A stretch of 64,000 nucleotides of DNA, from assembly GCA_963749905.1 (NCBI GenBank), contig CAVVOF010000006.1, positions 318,379-382,378 on the forward strand. The letters run 5' to 3'. The position numbers and the translations under genes were made by a program. This DNA comes from an uncultured Actinomycetota bacterium (GTDB taxonomy: Bacteria > Actinomycetota > Actinomycetes > S36-B12). The notes below the pieces were generated by a model. The model was not told where the DNA came from. It saw nothing but the letters and a program-made list of their open reading frames with translations, and did no database searches. This document shows positions 18,537 to 64,000 of this stretch, piece after piece (position 1 is the first letter of the stretch; each line of letters begins with the position of its first letter).

Positions 18537-19143
18537 ATGTTCGGACGCAACAAGCCCGCCGATTCCGCTGCCACGCCGACGCCCTCGGCGACGGAGCAGG
18601 ACGCCCGCGCGCCCAAGGGCCGTCCCACGCCCTCCCGGCAAGGAGGCCGAGGCGGCCCGCAAGCAGAACCTGCGGATCCCGAAGGACCCGAAGGCCGCGA
18701 AGAAGGCCGCCCGGGAGCGGGACCGCGAGGAGCGGTCACGTGCTCGCGCGGGCATGCTCGCCGGGGACGAGCGCTACCTGCCGCCGAGGGATCGTGGCCC
18801 GGCCAAGGCGTTCACCCGCGACTTCGTCGACTCCCGATTCACCATCGCGGAGTTCTTCATCTTCATCGCGATCGCCGTGCTCGCCCTGGGCTTCATCCGC
18901 AACGCCACCGTGCAGTCGTTCGTGACGCTGGCCTTCCTGCTGTTCGCCCTCGTCATCATCGTCGACACCGGCATCCTGCTGTTCAGCCTGGACCGGCGGG
19001 CCAAGGAGCAGTTCCCCAACAAGCCCGATCGCAAGGGCATCCTGCTGTACGCGACGCTGCGCACCGTCCAGCTGCGCCGGCTGCGCCTGCCCCCGCCGCG
19101 GGTCCGTCGCGGCGGCGCCCGTCGTCAAGTAGTCGTCAAGTAG
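18537..19143 (+). CDS. DUF3043-like membrane protein (frameshift near 18637)
   Basis: KGRPTP.RKEAE, GDERYLPPRDRGP, RRLRLPPP; usual neighbour of pspA in actinobacteria. Confidence 0.85.
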
Positions 19144-19362: not shown

Positions 19363-19400
19363 CGCCCCGTCTACCCTTGACAGTGGATTGGGGGGCAGCC

Positions 19401-20483
19401 ATGGCGACCGCTCTCGCACCGGAAGAGGGCACCCGCGGGATCTTCCTCCAGACCGCGCGGCGCCAGATCCCGCCTGTGCTAGCGGCGGCGGGCGTCCTGA
19501 CCGCCGTGTTCGCCGTGGTCAACGCGGTGGCCCTGCCTGACGAAGCCGCCACCACCTGGGTGATCAACGTGGTCTTCGCGCCGGTGTTCCTCATCCTGGC
19601 CTGGGTCCTGCGCCGTGGACAGCTCCCCGACACCGCGCTGCCGTGGATCTGGACGATGTGCAGCGTCGCCCTCGTGGGCATGCTCCTCCACGCCTATGCG
19701 CAGATGCCCACTGCGGCGAACCTCGCCTATGTGGTGCTGGTCATGATCGTCTTCGGACCGCTGACGCACGCGTGGCTTCCGTTCGCGCTGGGAGCGGTCG
19801 TGATGGAGATCGGCGCCGTGGCGACGTTCTCTGCCGTGGTGACCCCGGTGGAGGTGCGGGAGAACTCGCTCGTCTGCGCCAGTGCCCTGCTGGTGGGCGC
19901 CATCCTCCTGCAACTGCGACTCTCCGCACTCTCCGATCTCGCCGACATGCAGGTCGAACTGGCTCGCCAGGCGGCCTACGACCCCTTGACCGAAGTCCTC
20001 AACCGCAACGGGCTCGAGCGCGCGATCCCGGCCTTCCTCGCGACGGCGCAGCGCACCGAGGAACCGGTCCTCGCGTGGTTCGTCGACGTGCGCGGCCTCA
20101 AGAAGGCGAACGACCGGCTCGGTCATCGCTTCGGCGACGAACTGCTCTCGGCCGTCGCACGTGCCCTGCGGTCGTGCATCCGCACGAACGACCTCCTGGT
20201 GCGCTGGGGCGGCGACGAGTTCCTCGTTCTCGGGACGGGCTCGCCCGGAGCGGCAGCCGACCTGAACGCACGCGTGGACCGCATGCTTGCCGCCGATGCC
20301 GCGATCACCGATCGCTGGAAGGGGTCGGTCACCGTCGGCTTCGCCTCGGCGCCCGCTGTCGACGGGCCGGCGGGGCTCGACGAGCTCATCGCGCGTGCCG
20401 ACCAGGACATGTACCGGCGACGCGCGACAGCGGACGGTCCGCTCGAACAGGCCGGACAGCGGGATCTGCACCCCCGGACGTAA
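19401..20483 (+). CDS. membrane-bound GGDEF diguanylate cyclase (alternative TTG start at 19377)
   Basis: Several TM helices, DPLT, KKANDRLGH..GD, RTND I-site, RWGGDEF, RADQDMY. Confidence 0.9.
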   Translation: MATALAPEEGTRGIFLQTARRQIPPVLAAAGVLTAVFAVVNAVALPDEAATTWVINVVFAPVFLILAWVLRRGQLPDTALPWIWTMCSVALVGMLLHAYAQMPTAANLAYVVLVMIVFGPLTHAWLPFALGAVVMEIGAVATFSAVVTPVEVRENSLVCASALLVGAILLQLRLSALSDLADMQVELARQAAYDPLTEVLNRNGLERAIPAFLATAQRTEEPVLAWFVDVRGLKKANDRLGHRFGDELLSAVARALRSCIRTNDLLVRWGGDEFLVLGTGSPGAAADLNARVDRMLAADAAITDRWKGSVTVGFASAPAVDGPAGLDELIARADQDMYRRRATADGPLEQAGQRDLHPRT

Positions 20484-20645: not shown

Positions 20646-20702
20646 CGAGCGGCTCCATCCGTCGAGGTAACGGGACGGGAGCTCGGGTCCCCACCCAGCC
20701 GT

Positions 20703-20736
20703 CCCCCGACTGCTTCAGCAGCGGGGGTTTCGCTTT
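20703..20736 (+). terminator. terminator-like hairpin in the riboswitch expression platform
   Basis: cccccg-a-ctgct-tc-agcag-cggggg followed by tttcgcttt. Confidence 0.5.
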
Positions 20737-20785
20737 CCGGGGCACGCAGCGACCGGTCCGGCACCGCTCCCCCAGAAGGGCACCC

Positions 20786-21853
20786 GTGAACACCGTCAAG
20801 GGCCTGCGTCGCCTGAGCATCGCCATCGCGACCGCCATGGCCATTGCCCTGCCAACCGCCATCCCCGCGCACGCCGCCGGCTCCGACGCCGGCCTCTACG
20901 GCGCCAGCGACCCGACGTACGACGGCGTGTACCGCCAGTCGCTGGCCCTGCTGGGCCTGGCCGCCAACGACATCACCCCGCCGACCAGCGCCATCGCCTG
21001 GCTGCTGGACCAGCAGTGCGCGGACGGGTCCTTCCAGGCGTACCGCGCCGACACCGGCCAGCCCTGCGCCAAGGCGGACCCGGCCAACTTCACCGGGCCG
21101 GACACCAACTCCACCGCCCTCGCGCTGATGGCGCTGATGGCCCTCGACGACAGCCGGGTCATGAACCTGAAGGCGCCGATCATGAACCGCATCGTCGACT
21201 CGGCCGAGTCCGCCGGCACGTGGCTGCGCAAGCAGCAGAACGCGGACGGCGGCTGGCCGTACTACGCCGGCGGCGCATCCGATGCCAACTCGACCGGCCT
21301 GTCGCTCGCCGCCGCCAACACCTGGGGCGGCACGTTCGGCTCGAAGCTGTACAAGAAGGCCTCCCGCTTCCTGGGCCGGCTCTCGTCATCCTGCGCCGAC
21401 GGCGGCGGGTTCGCCTACCAGTCCGGCAGCAAGCCCGACGGCTCCGCAACGTCTCAGGGCGTGGTCGGACTGGCCGGCTCCCTGCCGGTGAGCAAGCAGC
21501 CCACCGCCGCGGTGGCCGCGCCCTGCGCGAACACCGCCAAGGCGAAGGGGATCAGCTACCTCGCCAAGGGCCTGTCATCGACCGGCCTGCTGCCCTCCTC
21601 GCTCGGCGGCATCGACTACTCGTCGACGGCCATGGCCGTGCTCGGCCTGACCGAGGCGCGGCAGGGCCGAGCGTCCATCCGCAAGGCCACTGCGGCACTG
21701 AAGGCCAGCGCCGACGAGTTCGTGACCGGCAACGGCACCAACCCGGGAGCCGCGGGCCTGCTGCTGATGGTCGCCGAGGCGACCGGCTCGAAGCCCACCG
21801 CGTTCGGCGGGGTCAACCTGGTCAGCACCCTGGCCTCGTCCATCCGCGGCTAG
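20786..21853 (+). CDS. secreted prenyltransferase/squalene-cyclase-repeat (alpha/alpha barrel) protein, putative cobamide-binding
   Basis: Signal peptide ending AHA-A; WLLDQQCADGSF, DTNSTA, WLRKQQNADGGW, DANSTG repeats; first gene after the riboswitch. Confidence 0.8.
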   Translation: MNTVKGLRRLSIAIATAMAIALPTAIPAHAAGSDAGLYGASDPTYDGVYRQSLALLGLAANDITPPTSAIAWLLDQQCADGSFQAYRADTGQPCAKADPANFTGPDTNSTALALMALMALDDSRVMNLKAPIMNRIVDSAESAGTWLRKQQNADGGWPYYAGGASDANSTGLSLAAANTWGGTFGSKLYKKASRFLGRLSSSCADGGGFAYQSGSKPDGSATSQGVVGLAGSLPVSKQPTAAVAAPCANTAKAKGISYLAKGLSSTGLLPSSLGGIDYSSTAMAVLGLTEARQGRASIRKATAALKASADEFVTGNGTNPGAAGLLLMVAEATGSKPTAFGGVNLVSTLASSIRG

Positions 21854-21866
21854 CGGACCTCCGCAC

Positions 21867-22592
21867 ATGAGGACGAGGGCGATCGCGCGGGCGGCCGGTG
21901 CACTGGCACTGGCAGCGTCGTCGATCGCCCTCGTCACCTCTCCGGCCCAGGCGGCCGCCTATCGCTACTGGACCTACTGGCAGGCGCCTGCCGCAGCCGG
22001 GACGTGGGCTTTCGCCACCCAGGGCCCCGGCACCGCGGTTCCCGCGGACGGCGACGTGGAGGGCTGGGCGTTCGGCGTCACCACCCAGTCAGCCGACCCC
22101 GACGACGCACCCGCCACCGCGCCCGACTTCGCCGCCGTCTGCGCCGACACCGCCGCTGCCCCGGACGGCAAGCGGGTGGCCCTGATCATCGACTTCGGCC
22201 CAGCCGCCGTCGCGCCCGCGGGCCAGACACCGCCCGCCCCGGTGGCGCAGTGCGTGGTCGCCGCCCCCGACGCGACCGGCTACGACCTGCTGCGCTCGGT
22301 GGCCGAGGTCCGGACCGAGGACGGGCTGGTCTGCGGCGTCGCCGGCTACCCCGAGGGTGAGTGCGCGCCGGTCCTCAGCGACGCCGAGGCCGAGGACCTG
22401 CTCACCGCGGCGTCGGCCTCCGCGTCACCCGGGCCGGGCACGTCGACGCCCAGCCCGTCGGGCATGGCCGCGGCCGCGACCGGCCCGGCAACCGGTCCGG
22501 GCTCTGGCTCCCCGGTCGCCGTCCTGGCGGTGGCCGCCCTGCTCCTCGGCGGCGGCGCCCTCTGGTACCGGGGGCGACGCCGTGAGAGCTGA
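21867..22592 (+). CDS. SCO2322-family exported, C-terminally anchored protein
   Basis: Signal peptide, YRYWTYW, GDVEGWAF, IDFG, LVCGVAGYP, low-complexity stalk, TM helix and basic tail. Confidence 0.8.
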   Translation: MRTRAIARAAGALALAASSIALVTSPAQAAAYRYWTYWQAPAAAGTWAFATQGPGTAVPADGDVEGWAFGVTTQSADPDDAPATAPDFAAVCADTAAAPDGKRVALIIDFGPAAVAPAGQTPPAPVAQCVVAAPDATGYDLLRSVAEVRTEDGLVCGVAGYPEGECAPVLSDAEAEDLLTAASASASPGPGTSTPSPSGMAAAATGPATGPGSGSPVAVLAVAALLLGGGALWYRGRRRES

Positions 22593-23710
22593 CCGCACCG
22601 CCCGGTGGCTGCACCCGGGCGCATGGTGGGCCTGGGCGCTGGGGCTGGCCGCGGCCGCGAGTCGCACCACCAACCCGCTGATCCTCCTGCTGATCATCGC
22701 CGCCGCCGCCGTGGTCGTGGAGTCCCGCCGACCCAACGCGCCGTGGGCCAGGTCGTTCGGCTTCTTCGTCCGCCTCGGCATCCTCGTCATCGCCGTCCGC
22801 CTGCTGGTCCAAGTGCTGTTCAGCGCCTCGATCGGCACGACCGTCCTGCTCGACCTGCCGGGCATCCCGCTGCCGTCCTGGCTGGCCGGCGTCCGCCTCG
22901 GCGGCACGATCACCCTCGAGTCGATGCTCGTCGCCCTCTACGACGGACTGCGGCTGGCGACGATCCTCATCTGCGTGGGCTCCGCCAACGCGCTCGCCTC
23001 GCCGACGCGGTTGCTCAAGTCGGTGCCCGCGGCTCTCTACGAGCTCGGGGTGAGCGTCGTGGTGGCACTCACCTTCACTCCGCAGCTGATCGCTGACGTC
23101 GACCGACTGCGCAGCACCCGTCGCCTGCGCGGGCGGCGCACCTCTGGCCCGCGGGCCATCGCCGGCGCGGCGGTCCCGGTGCTCGAGGGAGCGCTGGAGC
23201 GCTCGGTGACCTTGGCTGCGGCCATGGACTCGCGCGGCTACGGGCGCCGCGGCCCGCAGTCCGTCAGTAGCCGCCGGCTCGTCGGCCGCCCTGCTCCTCG
23301 GCGGCCTCGTCGCGTCGTGCATCGGCGTGTACGCGCTCGTGTCCGCCGATTCGCCCGCGGCCCTCGGCCTGCCGATGCTCGCCGCCGGAGTGGGCGCGTC
23401 CATCGCCGCCGTGGCGCTCGCCAGCCGTACGTCCGTCCGCACCCGATACCGGCCGGACCCGTGGCGGTTGCCCGAGTGGCTCGTCGCAGGGGCCGGCGTG
23501 GTCACCGCGGGGCTGCTCGCCGCCGCATCGTGGCTCGGCGTTGCCGCCCTGACCGCGCCGACCGATCCGCCAGGCTGGCCCGCCCTGCCCCTCGTCGGCC
23601 TCCTCGCCGCCGCGATCGCCGCCACGCCCGCCCTGACCGCGCCCCCGCTGCCGCTCAACGTCCGCCACCAGCGGTCGACCGCCACCCGTGTTCCGGAGCC
23701 GGTCGCATGA
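22582..23710 (+). CDS. ECF transporter T component, CbiQ family (frameshift near 23280)
   Basis: LHPGAWW, ALERS..LAAAMDSRGYG, RTRYRPDPW. Confidence 0.88.
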
Positions 23711-25332
23711 TCCGGTTCGACGACGTCACCATCACCTATCCGGGTGCGCACGCGCCCGTGCTGGCGCACGTCGACCTCGCCATCCCCGAGGGTGAACTGG
23801 TCCTGGTGGTCGGCCGCACCGGATCGGGCAAGTCCACCCTGCTCAAGGCCATCAACGGCCTGGTGCCCCACTTCACCGGCGGCACCCTCTCCGGTCGCGT
23901 GGTCGTCAACGGCCGTGACACCCGGGAGTTCCCTCCCCGCGAGCTCGCCGACGTGGTGGGCGTCGTCCCCCAGGACCCGATGAGCGGCTTCGTCACCGAC
24001 GTCGTGGAGGACGAGCTGGCCTACGGCATGGAATGCCTGGGCATCCCGGCCGACGTGATGCGTCGCCGCGTCGAGGAGACCCTCGACCTGCTCGGCCTGG
24101 CCGACCTGCGCCACCGGGCGCTGGCCTCCCTGTCCGGGGGACAGCGTCAGCGCGTCGCCATCGGCGCGGTGCTCACCTCGCACCCCCGAATCCTCGTGCT
24201 GGACGAGCCGACCTCCGCCCTGGATCCCGGTGCCGCGGAGGAGGTGCTCGCCGCACTCCAGCGCTTGGTGCACGACCTCGGCGTGACCGTGGTGATGGCC
24301 GAGCACCGGCTCGAACGCGTCGTCCAGTACGCGGACCTCGTCGTCATCGTCCCCGGCGAGGGCCTGCCGGTGGTGGCCGGATCACCCTCCGAGGTCATGG
24401 CGCAATGCCCCCATCGCGCCGCCGGTCGTCGAGCTCGGCCGCCTCGCCGGCTGGCAGCCGCTGCCGCTCTCGGTGCGTGACGCCCGTCGGGCCGCCGGTC
24501 CGCTGAGAGACCTGCTCGTCGGCCGCACCCCGCACCTGCGCGCGGTGCGATCCACCACTCGGGTGTCCGCCACGACCGACCATCTCTCCGTCTCGTACCA
24601 GGACCACCAGGCGCTGCGCGACGTCCGCCTCGATGTTGGCGAGGGCGAGATCGTGGCCCTGATGGGCCGCAACGGGGCCGGCAAGTCCACCCTCCTCAAC
24701 GCGATGGTCGGCCTGGGCCCGCGCGTCACCGGCCTCGTCCAGGTCGGCGGAGCGGATCCCCGGTCTCTGCGAGGGTCCAGAGCTGCTGTCCCGGGTGGGA
24801 CTGGTGCCCCAGGAGCCAGGCGACCTGCTCGAGGCCACCACCGTCGCGGACGAGTGCCGAGCCGCGGATCGCGACGCCCAGTGCGAGCCCGGCACCACCC
24901 GGGCCCTGCTCGCGCTCATGGCGCCGGACATCGAGGACGGCACGCATCCGCGGGACCTGTCGGAGGGCCAGCGGCTGCTGGTCGCTCTCTGCGTCATCCT
25001 GGCCGCCCGGCCCCGGACTGCTGCTGCTCGACGAGCCGACGCGCGGATTGGACTATCCGACGAAGGCCCGGCTGGCCCGCGTGCTCGCCGACCTCGCGGA
25101 GGCCGGTCACGCCATCGTCCTGGCGACGCATGACGTGGAACTGGTCGCCGAGGTCGCCGACCGCGTCGTCATCCTCGCCGAGGGCGAGGTGGTGGCGGAC
25201 GGGCCGACCAGCCACGTGGTCACGTCGTCGCCCATGTTCGCCCCTCAGGTGTCGAAGATCCTCGCCCCCGCGTCGTGGCTGACCGTGGATCAGGTCGCCG
25301 CGGCCATCACCGGCGAGGAGGTGGCCGGATGA
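23707..25332 (+). CDS. ECF transporter duplicated ATPase (frameshifts near 24404, 24774, 25012)
   Basis: GRTGSGKST / LSGGQ / LDEPT, then GRNGAGKST / LSEGQ / LDEPTRGLD. Confidence 0.88.
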
Positions 25333-26157
25333 GCAGCGCCGTGCACCTCGGGCCCGCGTCGCGGCTGGCCATCGGCATGGTCTCCGCGGTCGGGCTGGTC
25401 GCCTTCCTGTGGCCGCTGGTGGCGGCCCCGGAGTCCGCGGCCGTCGCGCATGCGAGCGACGCACCGATCCTGTTCGCGGTGGTCGTCCCGCTCCTGCTCG
25501 TCGTCGTCCTCACGCAGGTGAGCGACGGTGGGATGGACGCCAAGGCCATCGCCATGCTCGGCGTGCTCAGCGCGGTCATCGCGGCCCTGCGCCCGCTGGG
25601 CGCCGGCACGGCGGGACTCGAGCCGATCTGGATCGTGCTCATCCTCGGCGGCCGCGCCCTCGGGCCCGGATTCGGCTTCAGCCTCGGAGCCGTCTCGATG
25701 TTCGCGTCCGCCCTCCTCACCGGTGGCGTGGGGCCGTGGCTGCCCTTCCAGATGCTCGGTGCCGCGTGGGTCGGCATGGGTGCCGGCCTGCTCCCGCAGT
25801 GGCGGGGGCGACGCGAACTGGTGCATGCTGGCCGCATACGGGGCGGTCGCGTGCGTGGCCTACGGCTTCCTGCTGAACCTGTGGTTCTGGCCGTTCATGG
25901 CCGGGCTGCCGGAGGCGATCGCCTTCACTCCGGGCGCGGGCATGGTCGAGAACATCGCGGCCTGGCTGCGGTTCTGCCTGGTGACCTCGCTCGGCTACGA
26001 CCTGCCACGAGCCGCCTTGACCGTGATCCTCATCGTGGTCGCCGGACGGCCGGTGCTCCTGGCGCTGCGCCGAATCTCGAGGCGCGCCGCCTTCGATGCG
26101 CCGGTGGAGTTCACGCCGACCGCGGAGCCGGCGCCGCCCGTGGCCGGGGTCCGCTGA
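25329..26157 (+). CDS. ECF transporter S component, probably cobalamin-specific (frameshift near 25824)
   Basis: KAIAMLGVL, GGVGPWLPFQM, LNLWFWPF, YDLPRA. Confidence 0.85.
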
Positions 26158-26158
26158 G

Positions 26159-27583
26159 GTGCGCATCACCCTCCTCGGCACCGGATCGGCCGACGGCTGG
26201 CCCAACCCCTTCTGCCGGTGCGCCTCCTGCTCGACAGAGCGCACGGCCGGACGGGCCCGCACCCCGAGCTCGGCCCTGGTCGACGACGTCCTGCTGATCG
26301 ACGCCGGGCCGACCACGCCGCACCTGCCGCCCGGCGGGCCGGCCCTCGACCACGTCGAGCACCTGCTCCTCACTCACGGTCATCCGGACCACCTGCACCC
26401 GGCGCTGCTGCTGACCCGTCACTGGACGAGCCCGCGCGCCGTCCTGCACGTCTGGGGGCCGCCGGCCGCCCTCGACCTGTGCCGCGACTGGATCGCGCCG
26501 GACGCACCCGTCGACCTGCACCCCCTGATCGCCGGCGACGAAATGGCCCTGGACACCGCAGGCGGGACGTACTCCGTGCAGGCGCTGCCGGCGCGGCATG
26601 ACCACGGCAATGGCGACGTGCTCGCCGCGGAGGCGCTGCTCTTCGACGTCACCGGTCCGGACGGGGGTCGGCTGCTGTACGCCACCGACACCGGACCGTT
26701 CACCGCCGAGGAGATCGGACTGGCTACCGATCCGTACGACGTCGTCGTACTCGACGAGACCTTCGGCGACACCCTGGACCACGGCACCGGACACCTCGAC
26801 CTCGCCCGCCTGCCGGCCCTGCTCGCCGACCTCCGCGCGCACGGCTGCGTCACTGCCGCGACGCGTGTCATCGCCACCCATCTGAGCCATCACAATCCGC
26901 CCACCCCCGAGCTGCGCCGGCGCCTGGCGCCGTTGGGAGTCGAGGTGCTCGCGGATCTCGCCTCCATCGACACGGCCGACGGAACAGGCTCCGACCGTCG
27001 CGGACGGCGCCTGCTCATCCTCGGGGGCGCCCGGTCCGGCAAGTCCCGGCACGCGGAGGAGCTGGCGGCCGACGCGACACGGGTCACCTACGTGGCCACC
27101 GGCGGGCAGCGCCCCGACGACGGCGAGTGGACGGAGCGGGTCCGGCGCCATCGCGAGCGACGCCCGGCTCGCTGGACGACCGTCGAGTCCTCCGACGTGA
27201 GCGCGGTGCTGGCCGGGACCCAGCCGGGCGAGACCGTCCTCGTCGACTGCCTGGCCCTGTGGCTGACCGCCGCCCTCGACGACATCGACGCGTGGTCACG
27301 GAGTGAGGCAGGCGGGCGGTCGGCCGTCGAGGACGAGGCGCACGAGCGGATCACCGCGCTCGTCGCCGCGATCGAGCGCTGCCCGAGCGAGCTGATCCTG
27401 GTCTCCAACGAGGTGGGCATGGGCGTGGTGCCGGCCACCTCTTCCGGGCGGCTCTTCCAGGACCTGCTCGGCAGTCTGAACGCGAGGGTGGCCGAGCAGG
27501 TCGACGAGGCGGTCATCGTGATCGCCGGACAGCTCCTGCCCCTCACCGCCCGCGCCACGAGCACGAGGAGCTCCCGTGACTGA
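26159..27583 (+). CDS. cobU: PhnP-like MBL-fold hydrolase fused to adenosylcobinamide kinase/guanylyltransferase
   Basis: N-part LLGTG, CRCASC, THGHPDH, YATDT, THLSH; C-part GGARSGKS, RHRERRP, LVDC, VSNEVG; one uninterrupted frame. Confidence 0.9.
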   Translation: MRITLLGTGSADGWPNPFCRCASCSTERTAGRARTPSSALVDDVLLIDAGPTTPHLPPGGPALDHVEHLLLTHGHPDHLHPALLLTRHWTSPRAVLHVWGPPAALDLCRDWIAPDAPVDLHPLIAGDEMALDTAGGTYSVQALPARHDHGNGDVLAAEALLFDVTGPDGGRLLYATDTGPFTAEEIGLATDPYDVVVLDETFGDTLDHGTGHLDLARLPALLADLRAHGCVTAATRVIATHLSHHNPPTPELRRRLAPLGVEVLADLASIDTADGTGSDRRGRRLLILGGARSGKSRHAEELAADATRVTYVATGGQRPDDGEWTERVRRHRERRPARWTTVESSDVSAVLAGTQPGETVLVDCLALWLTAALDDIDAWSRSEAGGRSAVEDEAHERITALVAAIERCPSELILVSNEVGMGVVPATSSGRLFQDLLGSLNARVAEQVDEAVIVIAGQLLPLTARATSTRSSRD

Positions 27584-28655
27584 CACCGTCGCCGCGCCTT
27601 CGATCCGCGCGGCCGATTCCGCCCGTGCGCGCCAGGCCACCCTGACCAAGCCGGCGGGCGCCCTCGGCCGCCTCGAGGATGCGTCCATCTGGATGGCGGC
27701 CGTGCAGGACCGCTGTCCGCCGACGCCGTTCCGGCATCCCCACTTGGTGATCCTGGCCGGCGACCACGGCGTCGCGCGGACGTCGGGTACGTCCGCCTAT
27801 CCACCGGAGGTGACTGCCCAGATGGTGGCCAACTTCGCGACCGGCGGAGCGGCCGCCACGGTGCTGGCTCGCCGGCTGGGGGCGTCGGTGCGAGTCGTCG
27901 ACGTCAGCGTCGATGCCGACCCCGCGTACCTCGAGTCCATCGACCCGACGATCGCCGCCCATCGGGTCCGTCGGGGCAGCGGCAGCATCGACCGCGAGGA
28001 CGCGATGACCGTCGACGAGTGCCGGACCGCCCTGGCCCTCGGGCGGCTGCTCGCCGACGAGGCCATCGACGCCGGCGCCGACGTGCTGCTGCCTGGGGAC
28101 ATGGGCATCGGCAACACCACCCCGGCTGCCGCGCTCATCGGCGTCGTGACCGGCGCTGACGCGGCCGGTGTCACCGGCCGAGGCACGGGAATCGACGACC
28201 CCACGCTGCAGCGCAAGCGCCAGGCCGTCGCGTCCGCCATGGCGCGCGCGACGGAGGTGGCCGACGACCCGGTGGCCGTGCTCACACGCATCGGCAGCCC
28301 CGACATCGCGGCGGCCGCTGGCCTGCTCGCGCAGTCCGCCAGCCGCGGCTGCCCGGTGGTGCTGGACGGCGTGGTGTCCGGGGCGGCGGCCCTGCTCGCC
28401 GACCAGCTCGCCCCTGGCGCGCGCGACTGGTGGATCGCCGGCCATCGATCTGCGGAACCGGCCGCCGGACTGGCCCTCGCCCACCTGGGACTCCACCCCC
28501 TGGTCGACCTCGGCCTGCGCCTGGGCGAGGGCACCGGAGCACTGCTTGCCCTGCCGCTGCTGGACGCCGCGGCCACCACCCTCGCGGAGATGGCCACCTT
28601 CGAAAGTGCCGGAGTCTCGGATCGGCAGGCCCCGGCAGCCGCGGCACGGACCTGA
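27576..28655 (+). CDS. cobT: nicotinate-nucleotide-dimethylbenzimidazole phosphoribosyltransferase
   Basis: LTKPAGALGRLE, GDHG, GDMGIGNTT, GRGTG, LRLGEGTGA, EMATF. Confidence 0.95.
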   Translation: MTDTVAAPSIRAADSARARQATLTKPAGALGRLEDASIWMAAVQDRCPPTPFRHPHLVILAGDHGVARTSGTSAYPPEVTAQMVANFATGGAAATVLARRLGASVRVVDVSVDADPAYLESIDPTIAAHRVRRGSGSIDREDAMTVDECRTALALGRLLADEAIDAGADVLLPGDMGIGNTTPAAALIGVVTGADAAGVTGRGTGIDDPTLQRKRQAVASAMARATEVADDPVAVLTRIGSPDIAAAAGLLAQSASRGCPVVLDGVVSGAAALLADQLAPGARDWWIAGHRSAEPAAGLALAHLGLHPLVDLGLRLGEGTGALLALPLLDAAATTLAEMATFESAGVSDRQAPAAAART

Positions 28656-28656
28656 C

Positions 28657-29433
28657 GTGCCCGATTCCGTGCGGCTGGCCTTCGGCACCTTCACCCGGAT
28701 CCCCGTACCCGCTCCGCGGGTCGTCGACTCCCGGGTCGCGGGCCGGGCGATCCTCCTCGGCCCGCTCGTCGGCCTCGTGCTCGCCCTCGTCGTCGGCATC
28801 GCCGCACAGGTGCTCGTCAGCCTCACCCCCGTCGGCGGCCTGCTCGGCGGCGTCCTCGCGGTCGGCGCCCTGGCCTGGCTGACCCGCGGACTGCACCTCG
28901 ACGGCCTCGCCGACACCGCGGACGCCCTCGGCAGCGGCCGGCCCGCCGACGAGGCACTCGCCATCGCCCGGCGCTCCGACATCGGGCCGTTCGGCGTGCT
29001 GGTGCTGGTCCTGCTGCTGGCGGCCGAGGCCGTCGCCCTCGGCCAGCTGCTGGACAGCGGCGCGGGCGCGGGCAGCCTCGTCGTCGCGGTGGTCGCCGGC
29101 CGGATCGCGATCGTGCTCGCCTGCCGCCGCTCGGTCCCCGCGGCCAGGCCTGACGGGCTGGGCGCGATGGTTGCGGGCAGCGTTCCCACCTGGGCGGCAT
29201 TGGGCTGGGCGGCGCTGTGGGTGGCCCTCAGCGCCGCCTCGGTCGCCCGCGCGCACGGTCCCGGGGTGGCCCTGGCCACGGCTGCGGCGGTGGCCGTCGG
29301 CCTCCTCGCCGGCGCATGGCTGACGGCGGTGGCGGTCCGCCGGCTCGGCGGCATCACCGGCGACGTGCTCGGCGCGGTCGCGGAGGTCGCAACCGTCGCC
29401 GTGCTCGTCATACTGGTCGCGCTGCCGGGCTGA
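28657..29433 (+). CDS. cobS: adenosylcobinamide-GDP ribazoletransferase
   Basis: FTRIP, GLHLDGLADTAD, IGPFG, GGITGDVLGA. Confidence 0.93.
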   Translation: MPDSVRLAFGTFTRIPVPAPRVVDSRVAGRAILLGPLVGLVLALVVGIAAQVLVSLTPVGGLLGGVLAVGALAWLTRGLHLDGLADTADALGSGRPADEALAIARRSDIGPFGVLVLVLLLAAEAVALGQLLDSGAGAGSLVVAVVAGRIAIVLACRRSVPAARPDGLGAMVAGSVPTWAALGWAALWVALSAASVARAHGPGVALATAAAVAVGLLAGAWLTAVAVRRLGGITGDVLGAVAEVATVAVLVILVALPG

Positions 29434-29466: not shown

Positions 29467-30213
29467 ATGACCGCCGACCTGCCGCCGCTGACGGCTGACG
29501 CCATCGGCCGGGTCGAGGGCTCAGACGGAACCCGGGCCGTGCCACCGGCCGACGTGACCGGTGCTCTCGGCGATCTATGGACGTGGTGGCACTCGCTGGT
29601 GCCCGGCGCGTCGGTTGAGCCGCGGTGGCTGGACGGCCCGGACGGCCCGATCGCCGCGGCGATGGACGCTGGCGTGACCGCGGCGGACGCGGCGGTCGAT
29701 GCAGGCGTCACCCTGCTGATCCCCCGCGTCGCACGGCCCGACGACACGGTGGCCCGCACGGTCATCGGCCTGCTGACCCGCAAGGAGTCGTCCGCCGTCC
29801 TCGCTCAGCCGGCCGGCATGACGGATCGCGACTGGATGGTCGCCTGCGCGGACATCCGGGATCGGATGGCAGACGTGGTCGAGCATCGCGGCGAGCCGGT
29901 GCCCCTGCTCGACCACCTCGGCGCCGGCTCGCTGGCGGGCGTCGTCGGCATCCTGCTCGGGGCCGCGGCCCGTCGCACGCCCTGCCTCGTCGACGGCACC
30001 CCCGAACTCGCAGCCGCGCTCGTCGCGGACCGGCTGGCCTTCCGGGCGAAGGGCTGGTGGCGCGCCGGCGCGACGTCACCCGATCCCGCGCGCATCGCGG
30101 CCGTCGACCGCATCGATCTGACGCCGGGGCTGCCCCTGGACCTGAGCGATGACGCGGGACGTGGCGCCGAGGTCACCGTCGACCTGCTGGAGCTGCTCCT
30201 CTCGCGCGCCTGA
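29467..30213 (+). CDS. truncated, degenerate CobT-like protein
   Basis: GALGDL, AADAAVDAGVTLL, GAAARRTPCLVDG, PLDL...GRGA align to CobT; GDHG, GIGNTT and GEG motifs absent. Confidence 0.72.
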   Translation: MTADLPPLTADAIGRVEGSDGTRAVPPADVTGALGDLWTWWHSLVPGASVEPRWLDGPDGPIAAAMDAGVTAADAAVDAGVTLLIPRVARPDDTVARTVIGLLTRKESSAVLAQPAGMTDRDWMVACADIRDRMADVVEHRGEPVPLLDHLGAGSLAGVVGILLGAAARRTPCLVDGTPELAAALVADRLAFRAKGWWRAGATSPDPARIAAVDRIDLTPGLPLDLSDDAGRGAEVTVDLLELLLSRA

Positions 30214-59846: not shown

Positions 59847-59996
59847 GACACAACAGTAGGTGGGAGCGCTGCGAAGCCAGCGATCCCGCTCGAACTATGG
59901 GTTCGGCGGTGCCGTCAGCAGTTGACGAAGTTGCCCATGCGCATGCCCACGAGTCCCTTCGATGACGGACTGACAGCAGTGTCACAAGGAGGCGGG

Positions 59997-60383
59997 GGAC
60001 GAGCCAGCCTGTAAGCCGGATTCTGTGGTCAGCCGAGGCTGACCGGTGATCATCCATCTGCGACCGCTGTTGCCAGCGGCCTGGTGCGGTCTACCCGCAG
60101 GCGATGAGCGGGCCGCTCACCTGCGCAGGCCACCCGATCCTTGCGGATCGGACGGCCCTCTTGACCTTGCTCCGGGTGGGGTTTGCCTAGCCGCCGCAGT
60201 CACCTGCGGCGCTGGTGGTCTCTTACACCACCGTTTCACCCTTACCGCGATTGCTCGCGGCGGTTTGCTTTCTGTGGCACTGTCCCGCGGGTCACCCCGG
60301 GTGGGTGTTACCCACCACCCTGCCCTGTGGAGTCCGGACTTTCCTCGACACTCGCGTGCCGCGATCACCCGGCTGGCTCGTCC
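59997..60383 (-). ncRNA. rnpB: RNase P RNA (class A)
   Basis: Minus strand: GAGGAAAGTCC, AGTGCCACAGAAA, GGGTGAAACGGTG, ACAGAATCCGGCTTA; P1 ggacgagccagcc / ggctggctcgtcc. Confidence 0.97.
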
Positions 60384-62125: not shown

Positions 62126-63343
62126 TCAGGTGCCGTGCGGGGGCATCACACCGCGCAGGTGCGCCGCCTCTGCGAAGCCGAACATGGATGAGTGACCGTC
62201 CGGGAACCAGGCAAGGGTGCTGATCGAGCACGGTGGCAGTTCCATCCGGAACAGGCTGGTCAGCGGTGCGCCGACGGCGTCGGCCACCAGCACCTTGATC
62301 GGTGTCACGTGCGCGACCACGAGCAGCCGCTGTCCGGGGTGTTCCGCGATGACTGCGTCGCGGGCGCGCAGGACCCGTCGCTGACAGGCCGCGAATGACT
62401 CGCCGCCCGGAGGTGCCACATCCGTCGATCCGAGCCACTCCTCGAGCTCGGCCGGCCAGCGCTCGCGCACTTCGGCGAAGGTGTGGCCGTCCCAGTCGCC
62501 GAAGGCACACTCGGCGAAACCATCGACGACCGCTACCGGGAGTCCCAGGGCATCGGACACCGCTTGCGCCGTCTGACGCGTCCGCAGAAGCGGCGACGCG
62601 ATGATCCGCTCGATGTCACCGCGCTCTGCGAGCTCCGCGGCCAGCTCCGCGGCTTGCTCCTCGCCCAGCGGCGACAGCGGGGCGTCGTATCCGCCCAGCC
62701 CGCTGAAGCGCTTCTCCAGGCTCAGCGCGGTGGCGCCATGCCTGGCCAGGATGGTGTGGGTCGGGGCAGCGAGGTCAGCCCACCCGACCATCACGTTGGC
62801 CTTCGGACCGCTCGTCGCCTGCTCCTCAGCGACTGCCCGCGAGCGCTCCACATCGATGCTGCCGACGACGTCCTCAGCCAACTCATCCTCACTCGGCGCT
62901 CCGTCGATCCGACGGATGTGCCGAGCGCCATTCGCGAGCGCTGCGTCGATCATCTCGTTGACGAGGCGGTCGGCGACCACGTTCTGCGCCCGCGGGACCC
63001 ATGTGTAGGTGACGTGGCCCGGCGGGTAGATGTCGCGCGCCCTGCGGGCGAGGACCCGCATGTCGGGATGCTTGATCTGCCAACGCCCGCTCATCTGCTC
63101 GACGATCAGCTTGGAGTCGAGGCGCATCTCGACGTTGGCCTGCGGGTCGAGTTCATGCGCGTGCTCCAGTCCGGCGATGGCCCCTCGGTACTCGGCGACG
63201 TTGTTGCTCACCTCCCCGAGGTACTCGGCGAGCTCGGCAAGGACGGTCCCCGTCACGGCGTCACGAACGACGGCGCCGTAGGCGGCCGGTCCCGGGTTGC
63301 CGCGGGAGCCGCCGTCGGCCTCCACGATGAGCGAGCGTGGCAT
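62126..63343 (-). CDS. bifunctional RNase HI / histidine phosphatase (CobC-like)
   Basis: EADGGSRGNPG, NNVAEY, DSKL, AD; then RHG, SPL.R, ECAFG.WDG, VAHVTPIK. Confidence 0.93.
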   Translation of the reverse strand: MPRSLIVEADGGSRGNPGPAAYGAVVRDAVTGTVLAELAEYLGEVSNNVAEYRGAIAGLEHAHELDPQANVEMRLDSKLIVEQMSGRWQIKHPDMRVLARRARDIYPPGHVTYTWVPRAQNVVADRLVNEMIDAALANGARHIRRIDGAPSEDELAEDVVGSIDVERSRAVAEEQATSGPKANVMVGWADLAAPTHTILARHGATALSLEKRFSGLGGYDAPLSPLGEEQAAELAAELAERGDIERIIASPLLRTRQTAQAVSDALGLPVAVVDGFAECAFGDWDGHTFAEVRERWPAELEEWLGSTDVAPPGGESFAACQRRVLRARDAVIAEHPGQRLLVVAHVTPIKVLVADAVGAPLTSLFRMELPPCSISTLAWFPDGHSSMFGFAEAAHLRGVMPPHGT

Positions 63344-63348
63344 CGGCG

Positions 63349-64000
63349 CTAGAGACCCGACTCCGGGGTGCGCACCAGGATGCGTCGGCACTCCTCGCAC
63401 CGGATCACGTCGTCGGGAGGGGCGGCGCGCAGCTCCTCGATCTCGGTGGGCGGCAGCGCCAGGCGGCAGCCCTGGCAGGTGCCGCGATGCAACGGTGCGG
63501 CGCCGACACCGCCGTGGTCGGCCCGGATCTTCTCGTAGAGAGCGAGCAGATCGGCCGGGATCTCGGTGGCGATGAGGTCGCGCTGCTCCTTGACTATCCG
63601 CGCTTCGGCATCGAGTGCCGAGCGCTGCTCATGCACACTGGCCGCCAGGGTCTCGCGCTCGGTCGCGAGGTCGTCGCGCTCACGCCCGAGTTGGACGGCC
63701 GCCGCCTTCGCCCCCTCGACGCGCTCCATGATCTCGAGCTCGACGTCCTCGAGGTCGGAACGGCGGCGGCCCAGCGAGTCGAGCTCGGCCTGGATGGACT
63801 GCAGCTGCTTGGGGTCGCCGATCGTCCCGGAGTCCAGCAGGTGACGATCCCGGGCCATCCGGTCGAGGACCTGCTGCACGTCCTGGTCCGCGCGCGCCTG
63901 GTCGCGTTCGAGGTCGCTCAGGATGGTCTCCGCCGCCACCGTCTCGTCCCGCACCCGCGCCAGTCGGGCCTCCAGCTCCGCGAGGCGGGTGGCGTCGGGC
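63349..64000 (-). CDS. coiled-coil / C4 zinc-ribbon protein, DUF164-like (5' end outside window)
   Basis: Long coiled coil then CQGC...CEECRRIL; usual neighbour of the RNase H fusion. Confidence 0.9.
   Translation of the reverse strand, partial: PDATRLAELEARLARVRDETVAAETILSDLERDQARADQDVQQVLDRMARDRHLLDSGTIGDPKQLQSIQAELDSLGRRRSDLEDVELEIMERVEGAKAAAVQLGRERDDLATERETLAASVHEQRSALDAEARIVKEQRDLIATEIPADLLALYEKIRADHGGVGAAPLHRGTCQGCRLALPPTEIEELRAAPPDDVIRCEECRRILVRTPESGL

Follow-up and report, generated by a model that had tools for sequence, protein, structure and literature searches.

A PhnP-like metallo-β-lactamase domain fused to CobU in salvaging Actinomycetes is a candidate cobamide-remodelling hydrolase

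A 64,000-nucleotide (nt) stretch of contig CAVVOF010000006.1, from an uncultured bacterium of the Actinomycetota (the window; all positions below are coordinates in it), encodes a protein in which a PhnP-like metallo-β-lactamase (MBL)-fold domain is joined to CobU, in an operon with an energy-coupling factor (ECF) importer, cobT and cobS. The fusion is a real, widespread and unannotated feature, and the best-supported reading is that its MBL half cuts the nucleotide loop of imported cobamides, an assignment made from sequence to which we give a probability of about 0.45. More tentatively still, the intact MBL half may constitute a third class of cobamide-remodelling enzymes, with a structure unrelated to that of the first two, that is coupled to CobU, is widespread in salvaging Actinomycetes including the freshwater Nanopelagicales, and is reduced to a zinc-binding stub in lineages that make the corrin ring.

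The fusion gene (26159–27583, + strand, 474 amino acids) lies in an open frame that runs without interruption from 26096 to 27583 on the + strand. Its GTG start at 26159 is shared by a database copy (P0002, 474 amino acids) and by all aligned homologues, which begin MR[IV]TLLGTG, so that open frame and homologue starts agree with a preliminary description of this DNA in which one frame joined both domains from 26159. Residues 1–272 (26159–26974, + strand), as delimited by Pfam, NCBIfam, alignment and a structural model, form the PhnP-like MBL-fold domain, which matches Lactamase_B_2 in Pfam (PF12706, E = 2.7e-19, 70 bits against a cut-off of 27) and contains all six metal motifs that had been listed for it (GTG, CRCASC, THGHPDH, HDH, TDT and THLSH). 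The C-terminal half (27014–27583, + strand) is CobU (adenosylcobinamide kinase/adenosylcobinamide-phosphate guanylyltransferase), both by Pfam (PF02283, E = 3.8e-53, 179.9 bits against a cut-off of 27) and by NCBIfam, where the cut-off of 161 for the CobU equivalog PRK05800/NF004469 is exceeded with 174.3 bits. Short-read contigs from public runs span 26871–27210 across the linker with zero indels, and both Pfam domains are present in 120/120 database relatives among the matches listed (52–66% identity); the domain junction is therefore not an artefact, and the stop between the domains that had been envisaged as a possibility is not seen. A scan of species-representative genomes returned 390 confirmed fusion stretches.

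The best solved sequence relative of the MBL half is Escherichia coli PhnP (3g1p, E = 8e-8). In the alignment, HxHxDH, three more ligands of the metals and a CxCxxC...H site are paired, and a His stands opposite PhnP His200; from the roles of the PhnP residues, we take these to be dimetal ligands, a Cys3His zinc site and a general acid. An AlphaFold model computed from an alignment of 64 sequences (predicted local distance difference test score, 93.4; predicted template modelling (TM) score, 0.82) predicts a fixed two-domain body. Searched with Foldseek, its MBL half retrieved PhnP (TM score 0.70–0.72, 24–25% identity) as well as PqqB, 6b9v, YhfI and RNase Z, the entry title of 6b9v being that of a diphosphatase of the PhnP family, and its CobU half retrieved Salmonella CobU (1c9k; TM score 0.90, 37% identity), which differs from the fusion in being a stand-alone protein of about 180 amino acids with no N-terminal hydrolase domain. 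The profile and structure searches of both halves that the preliminary description had proposed thus yield a PhnP-like MBL fold and a CobU fold; a search of the ESM Atlas gave generic MBL clusters only. PhnP is thus among the best relatives by fold as well, and the others are likewise MBL enzymes that cleave phosphodiesters or anhydrides. Together these likenesses suggest that the MBL half belongs to the PhnP branch and hydrolyses phosphoesters with the help of two metals. PhnP, the E. coli phosphoribosyl 1,2-cyclic phosphate phosphodiesterase, acts on an alpha-ribosyl phosphodiester, and shares with the fusion the MBL fold, the dimetal ligands, the Cys3His zinc site and the position of the general-acid His; the differences are the low identity given above, the cob operon and the attached CobU. 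The PhnP equivalog TIGR03307 is not reached (41.8 bits against an NCBIfam cut-off of 272.25), and the fusion gene is not in a phn operon, its neighbours being the ECF importer, cobT and cobS (the genome was not searched for phn genes).

Conservation was assessed on 64 full-length fusions with 41–66% overall identity. The window protein and 56 of these 64 have the full set of twelve key residues (the seven dimetal ligands, the equivalent of His200 and the Cys3His site), which, at such identities, argues for selection on catalysis. One fusion lacks just one ligand, and seven are without three or more dimetal ligands; Cys19, Cys21, Cys24 and His244 are kept in 64/64 and His212 in 62/64. On the CobU side, the P-loop GxxxxGKS (here GGARSGKS) is invariant in all 64, and His331, presumably the guanylylation site, is kept in 63. 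The invariance of the Cys3His site, which extends to the seven fusions from which at least three catalytic ligands are missing, would also be expected if the MBL half served CobU in a structural or regulatory role (folding, oligomerization, docking to a membrane or complex), as would the fixed two-domain body predicted by the model with a predicted TM score of 0.82 and the persistence, in producers, of a stub that carries this site (see below). Such a role sits poorly with the full catalytic set in 56/64 fusions, and we regard it as unlikely, together with its variant in which the MBL half cleaves a phosphodiester unrelated to corrinoids; stand-alone homologues in unrelated neighbourhoods are in line with that variant, and the tight operon link of the fusion to the importer and to the loop-assembly genes speaks against it.

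A search of 1.84 billion representatives with the MBL domain alone found 74 relatives at E ≤ 1e-30, a number that rises to 638 when E ≤ 1e-10 is allowed, and stand-alone proteins of about 250–290 amino acids are among the matches. Pfam found CobU in 10 of 27 picked relatives (one of them cut short) and an MBL-CobT fusion in two (P0156 and P0177), of which P0156 aligns to full-length CobT with E = 5e-30. Three loci of stand-alone MBL genes (G250, G234 and G253) have no cob genes nearby, the MBL gene itself being recovered in G250 only. As a separate observation, the seven ligand-poor fusions (P0148, P0170, P0174, P0190, P0191, P0234 and P0254) have a full-length domain from which three or more dimetal ligands are gone, and, judged by their residues, look like pseudoenzymes, intermediate in form, with the intact domain on one side and the stub on the other.

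The operon itself fits the earlier account of a B12-riboswitch operon with an ECF importer, cobT and cobS, now on the strength of a cobalamin riboswitch of the Rfam AdoCbl-II family (RF01689; 20555–20645, + strand; 43.7 bits, gathering score 36.5) and of Pfam and NCBIfam gene calls. All genes of the operon are on the + strand, with ends that touch or overlap. Upstream of the fusion lie, all on this strand, the T component of the importer (CbiQ family, PF02361; 22590–23680), the first ATP-binding cassette (ABC) ATPase of the ECF module (23700–24480; PF00005, E about 1e-27, nt about 23765–24216), a second ABC ATPase (24473–25332) and the S (substrate-binding) component (25338–26157; PF12822), whose gene ends 1 nt upstream of the start codon of the fusion. 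The 3' end of the fusion in turn overlaps cobT (27576–28655, + strand), the product of which is the nicotinate mononucleotide:base phosphoribosyltransferase (PF02277, E = 5.8e-122; TIGR03160, 391.8 bits against 319.3), and cobS follows (28678–29433, + strand, start approximate; cobamide-5'-phosphate synthase, PF02654, E = 1.5e-43). When the window proteins were compared by tblastn with 80 related loci, in which many misses reflect contig ends, CobS turned up next to the fusion in 62 loci, and there were 60–61 loci with the S component, 55–57 with the T and ATPase genes and 56 with CobT. These neighbours are truly absent from the fusion loci of Mycolicibacter, Prescottella, Gordonia, Aquipuribacter and a few others; in these four genera and in 'Jannaschia sp.' the fusion has unrelated genes only around it. 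A cobalamin-clan riboswitch precedes the first gene in 6/7 long related loci, the exception being L063, in which none reaches the gathering score.

The source genome (3.28 Mb in 7 contigs, 92.5% complete) has the content of a salvager. At that completeness no match to CbiC, CbiB or CbiZ was found in it, in line with the absence of corrin-ring genes that had been noted for the window; no BluB is over cut-off (best 60.7 bits against 150). Since CbiZ, CbiB and CbiC are all without a match and BluB is below cut-off, the CbiZ route would be unusable here. The fusion is the only CobU of the genome, in which five B12-binding domains are over cut-off. On this evidence the organism is a corrinoid salvager whose only starting points are cobinamide or a complete cobamide.

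To place the fusion in a wider frame, we sampled the class with 301 genomes, of which seven (G006, G014, G023, G029, G035, G042 and G262) are unpublished. The expectation that the fusion occurs in other actinobacteria was borne out, with an intact MBL half (E ≤ 1e-15) in 90/301 genomes, annotated every time as CobU alone. CobU matches were obtained in 211/301 genomes, 206 of them over cut-off, while CbiC was found in 111/301 and CbiZ in 23/301; one genome with an intact MBL half (G212) is without a CobU match. Among the 206 CobU carriers, those with an intact MBL half are CbiC-positive in 25 cases and CbiC-negative in 64, and those without it are CbiC-positive in 86 and CbiC-negative in 31 (24/62 and 83/31, respectively, without the unpublished genomes). 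Put the other way, the intact domain occurs in 64/95 CbiC-negative compared to 25/111 CbiC-positive carriers. The trend persisted when genomes were collapsed by majority rule into 46 families: of those with an intact MBL half, 17 are CbiC-negative and 7 CbiC-positive, compared to 5 and 17, respectively, of those without it (Fisher p = 0.0014, the families still not being independent). As to CbiZ, 2/89 CobU carriers with an intact MBL half have it, compared to 21/117 MBL-negative ones, so that 87/89 answer to the earlier supposition that carriers would lack cbiZ; CbiZ is confined to five families, and in one of these (f54) the intact MBL half occurs as well.

Some of the genomes that make the ring carry a remnant instead. 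The CobU of a Streptomyces-like genome has 402 amino acids and aligns over its first 226 residues to the MBL half, minus HxHxDH and the whole middle. Used as a query, this stub matched 124/301 genomes, that is, all 90 with the intact domain and a further 34 (32 once the unpublished ones are set aside), and of these 34 stub-only genomes 29 are CbiC-positive and 16 CbiZ-positive. We aligned four stubs from ring-synthesising actinomycetes of three families (L119, 4392–5600; L121, 296–1711, − strand; L122, 312–1514; L123, 224–1471, − strand). All four retain the GTG...GWPxPxCxCxxC segment and the C-terminal zinc-site His, and in all four the segments with HxHxDH, His147, Asp177 and the general-acid His212 are deleted, so that the dimetal ligands are gone. 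The catalytic core is thus deleted in the ring-synthesising genomes aligned (4/4) and kept mostly in salvaging lineages; from the stub remnants in ring-synthesising genomes it also follows that the fusion is old.

Enrichment of the intact domain where ring synthesis is lacking, together with its decay in the producers examined, fits a salvage-specific hydrolase better than a CobC-like or base-side role, neither of which predicts such a pattern, because producers need those steps as much as salvagers do. The probable place of the MBL half is therefore in corrinoid salvage rather than in de novo synthesis. That its gene is so closely tied, within the operon, to those for import and loop assembly points to a corrinoid as the substrate, and the nucleotide loop suggests itself within it, being the obvious phosphodiester in salvage and having a precedent in CbiR (PMC7733943). 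While the architecture, the catalytic residues with their conservation, the operon and the distribution across genomes are observed, we infer the substrate, the products and the hand-over to CobU, which would be connected in the following way. Complete cobamides would be brought in by the ECF importer, and the MBL half would hydrolyse their nucleotide-loop phosphodiester to cobinamide phosphate and the alpha-riboside of the unwanted base or, alternatively, to cobinamide and the riboside 3'-phosphate. The fused CobU would guanylylate the cobinamide phosphate, or phosphorylate cobinamide first, whereupon CobT and CobS would attach a base available to the cell, and a bifunctional RNase H/acid phosphatase encoded in the window, or another phosphatase, would strip the 5'-phosphate. 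The riboswitch would turn the operon off when usable cobalamin is plentiful. The structural and contextual premises on which loop cleavage had been put forward (domains, motifs, operon and genome content) all hold.

The last step of loop assembly offers a different task for the MBL half, which might substitute for CobC by removing the 5'-phosphate from adenosylcobamide-5'-phosphate or alpha-ribazole-5'-phosphate. This step is without a canonical enzyme, in that the CobC equivalog TIGR03162 is over cut-off in 0/301 sampled genomes and is likewise missing from the source genome, where the best hit, a different gene, has 128 bits against 162.9. An MBL domain joined to CobU or CobT would remain within the same pathway, and MBL-fold phosphomonoesterases do exist, such as the MBL-domain phytase of PMC6584368. 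The nearest characterised relatives of the MBL half are, however, diesterases. PhnP is not known to have monoesterase activity. Moreover, producers need the CobC step equally, yet the core is deleted in 4/4 of those examined and the intact form is enriched in salvagers. The source genome also has both earlier candidates for this step. One is the RNase H/acid phosphatase of the Rv2228c/MSMEG_4305 type (62126–63400, − strand; RVT_3/RNase_H and His_Phos_1; NF005567, 471.6 bits against 326), for which there is support in vivo, in that deletion of the M. smegmatis orthologue lowered B12 and gave B12-reversible phenotypes, as reported in PMC7466739. Akin to the fusion, CobC and the RNase H/acid phosphatase are hydrolases of the nucleotide-loop pathway, but the CobC family has another fold and a covalent phospho-His mechanism; its member is encoded separately, and the fusion protein has no His_Phos_1 match (Pfam, E ≤ 0.001). 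We therefore consider a CobC substitute improbable. A test of complementarity with CobC was uninformative at 0/301, and a tally below threshold (E ≤ 1e-40: 32 genomes, 5 of them with intact MBL) is arbitrary and was left unused.

The other candidate bears on CblZ, a non-orthologous replacement of CobC in Actinobacteria predicted in 2003 (Rodionov, as cited in PMC8620254 and PMC6593275). CblZ resembles the fusion in that it was predicted for a missing step and stands next to cobU-cobT-cobS in actinobacteria. In a 2019 gene table, M. avium 104 has CobS, CobT, CobU and CblZ as 2222, 2223, 2224 and 2225, Corynebacterium, Gordonia, Rhodococcus and M. abscessus have the same order, and CblZ is distant from CobU in Propionibacterium, Aeromicrobium and Dermacoccus. 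We rejected the identification of CblZ with the MBL domain, as CblZ flanks CobU on the side away from CobT, where a DUF3043 gene lies beside cobU-cobT-cobS in 2/2 Mycobacterium-like genomes, and we infer that CblZ is DUF3043. In the window a DUF3043 protein (PF11241, 175.1 bits) is encoded at 18622–19113 (+ strand), just upstream of the operon. A DUF3043 gene also accompanies cobU, cobT and cobS in distant actinomycetes (L112, L115, L116, L117 and L118), often with an aldo-keto reductase.

A further alternative, on the base side, would be a dinucleotide pyrophosphatase in base activation, converting, for example, the alpha-5,6-dimethylbenzimidazole adenine dinucleotide formed by CobT with NAD+ to alpha-ribazole-5'-phosphate and AMP. 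The entry title of the PhnP-family structure 6b9v ('diphosphatase') and the MBL-CobT fusions, among them P0156 with its full-length CobT (E = 5e-30), would agree with such an activity, and an NAD+-dependent CobT route is mentioned in PMC12713380. That route is of unproven physiological weight, however, and the main fusion partner is CobU, not CobT. As such a pyrophosphatase would serve producers and salvagers alike, it also runs against the distribution and the decay pattern, and we consider it very unlikely.

Several points nonetheless weigh against cleavage of the nucleotide loop. The known substrates of the PhnP branch are small molecules, the corrinoid substrate of the importer is itself a presumption, and the MBL-CobT fusions fit a base-side role equally well. 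Joined to a biosynthetic enzyme, a loop-cleaving domain would have to be selective for its substrate, or a futile cycle would result. The genomes surveyed are related and some are incomplete; 25 genomes with the intact domain probably belong to de novo producers, and the complementarity with CbiZ is weak once relatedness is taken into account.

If loop cleavage is nevertheless what the MBL half does, it would add a new structural class to an enzyme type that is already known. To our knowledge, only the CbiZ and CbiR families are known to open cobamides for rebuilding, with Vibrio CobS as a third, special case. CbiZ likewise starts cobamide remodelling, but it cuts an amide bond, needs CbiB and CobD for rebuilding of the linker and has another fold; it coexists with the intact MBL half in only 2/23 CbiZ carriers. 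CbiR of Akkermansia muciniphila hydrolyses the loop to cobinamide phosphate and alpha-ribazole, which feed CobU, CobT and CobS, and is encoded beside cobU/cobT/cobS in a host without de novo cobamide synthesis (PMC7733943). It differs from the fusion in being an AP-endonuclease-2 TIM barrel and a separate protein that is oxygen-sensitive in vitro (same source), and the MBL half, with its presumed reaction, would be its functional parallel on an unrelated fold. In keeping with a domain unrelated to both families, neither the CbiZ domain (PF01955) nor AP_endonuc_2 is matched in the fusion protein, in which Pfam at E ≤ 0.001 gave only CobU, Lactamase_B_2 and Lactamase_B. In a literature search that left most subscription journals outside, neither an MBL-CobU fusion nor an MBL cobamide hydrolase turned up as the subject of a paper.

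Most microbes that require B12 cannot make it and rely on the cobamides of others, which often have the wrong lower ligand. Were loop cleavage true, an unrecognised conversion of foreign cobamides would be at work in a large and ecologically important group, the actinobacteria of soil, sediment and freshwater, including the Nanopelagicales, and genome-based predictions of which form of B12 is used by whom would need revision. The domain is hidden under the plain annotation 'CobU', and the pattern of intact and stub forms is a ready-made natural experiment.

The importer genes are interrupted by four frame changes, one in the T gene (near 23281), two in the second ATPase gene (near 24769 and 25010), whose Walker A half and C-terminal half are in different frames, and one in the S gene (near 25815). 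They were recognised from frame plots of third-position GC content (GC3), from Pfam on three frames and by tblastn with the intact homologue of locus L017, by which the T gene passes from frame 1 to frame 2 and the S gene from frame 3 to frame 1. Otherwise near-perfect short-read contigs have one base fewer at 23281 (X2 and X4), 24769 (X4), 25009 (X2) and 25011 (X4), which points to single-base insertions in the window at the first three sites; no listed short-read piece spans the shift in the S gene. The simplest reading is that the frameshifts are probably assembly errors, a difference between strains being possible, and similar single-base errors may be present elsewhere in the same assembly. 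No frame change is seen over the 4 kb that follow (the fusion gene, cobT, cobS and a cobT-like gene). For the S component no solved relative was found at E ≤ 10, the only match being a weak one to a folate-family S component.

Between the riboswitch and the importer genes, two further genes are found on the + strand. The first (20700–21853, start approximate) encodes a membrane or surface protein like those of the SCO2321 family, recognised from the GC3 frame and from NF053823 (207 bits, below the cut-off of 300), with weak, toroid-like Pfam matches to Prenyltrans and SQHop_cyclase_N. The second (21867–22592) encodes an SCO2322-family protein (NF040672, 153.4 bits, cut-off 85) that carries an LPXTG motif for anchoring to the cell wall (TIGR01167). 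They are conserved in 35/80 and 43/80 related loci, respectively, many loci being cut by contig ends, and the pair precedes the ECF genes in many loci. By analogy their products may be corrinoid-binding proteins of the cell surface, the alpha-alpha barrel of transcobalamin being a loose parallel to the toroid matches.

Downstream of cobS, a half-length CobT-like protein of 248 amino acids (29467–30213, + strand) matches the C-terminal half of the DBI_PRT model only, and a minority of the related loci have a separate half-length cobT-like copy after cobS. Between the DUF3043 gene and the riboswitch lies a gene for a GGDEF-domain protein (19377–20483, + strand), and a class A RNase P RNA (59996–60380, − strand; 299.7 bits) lies near the RNase H/acid phosphatase gene.

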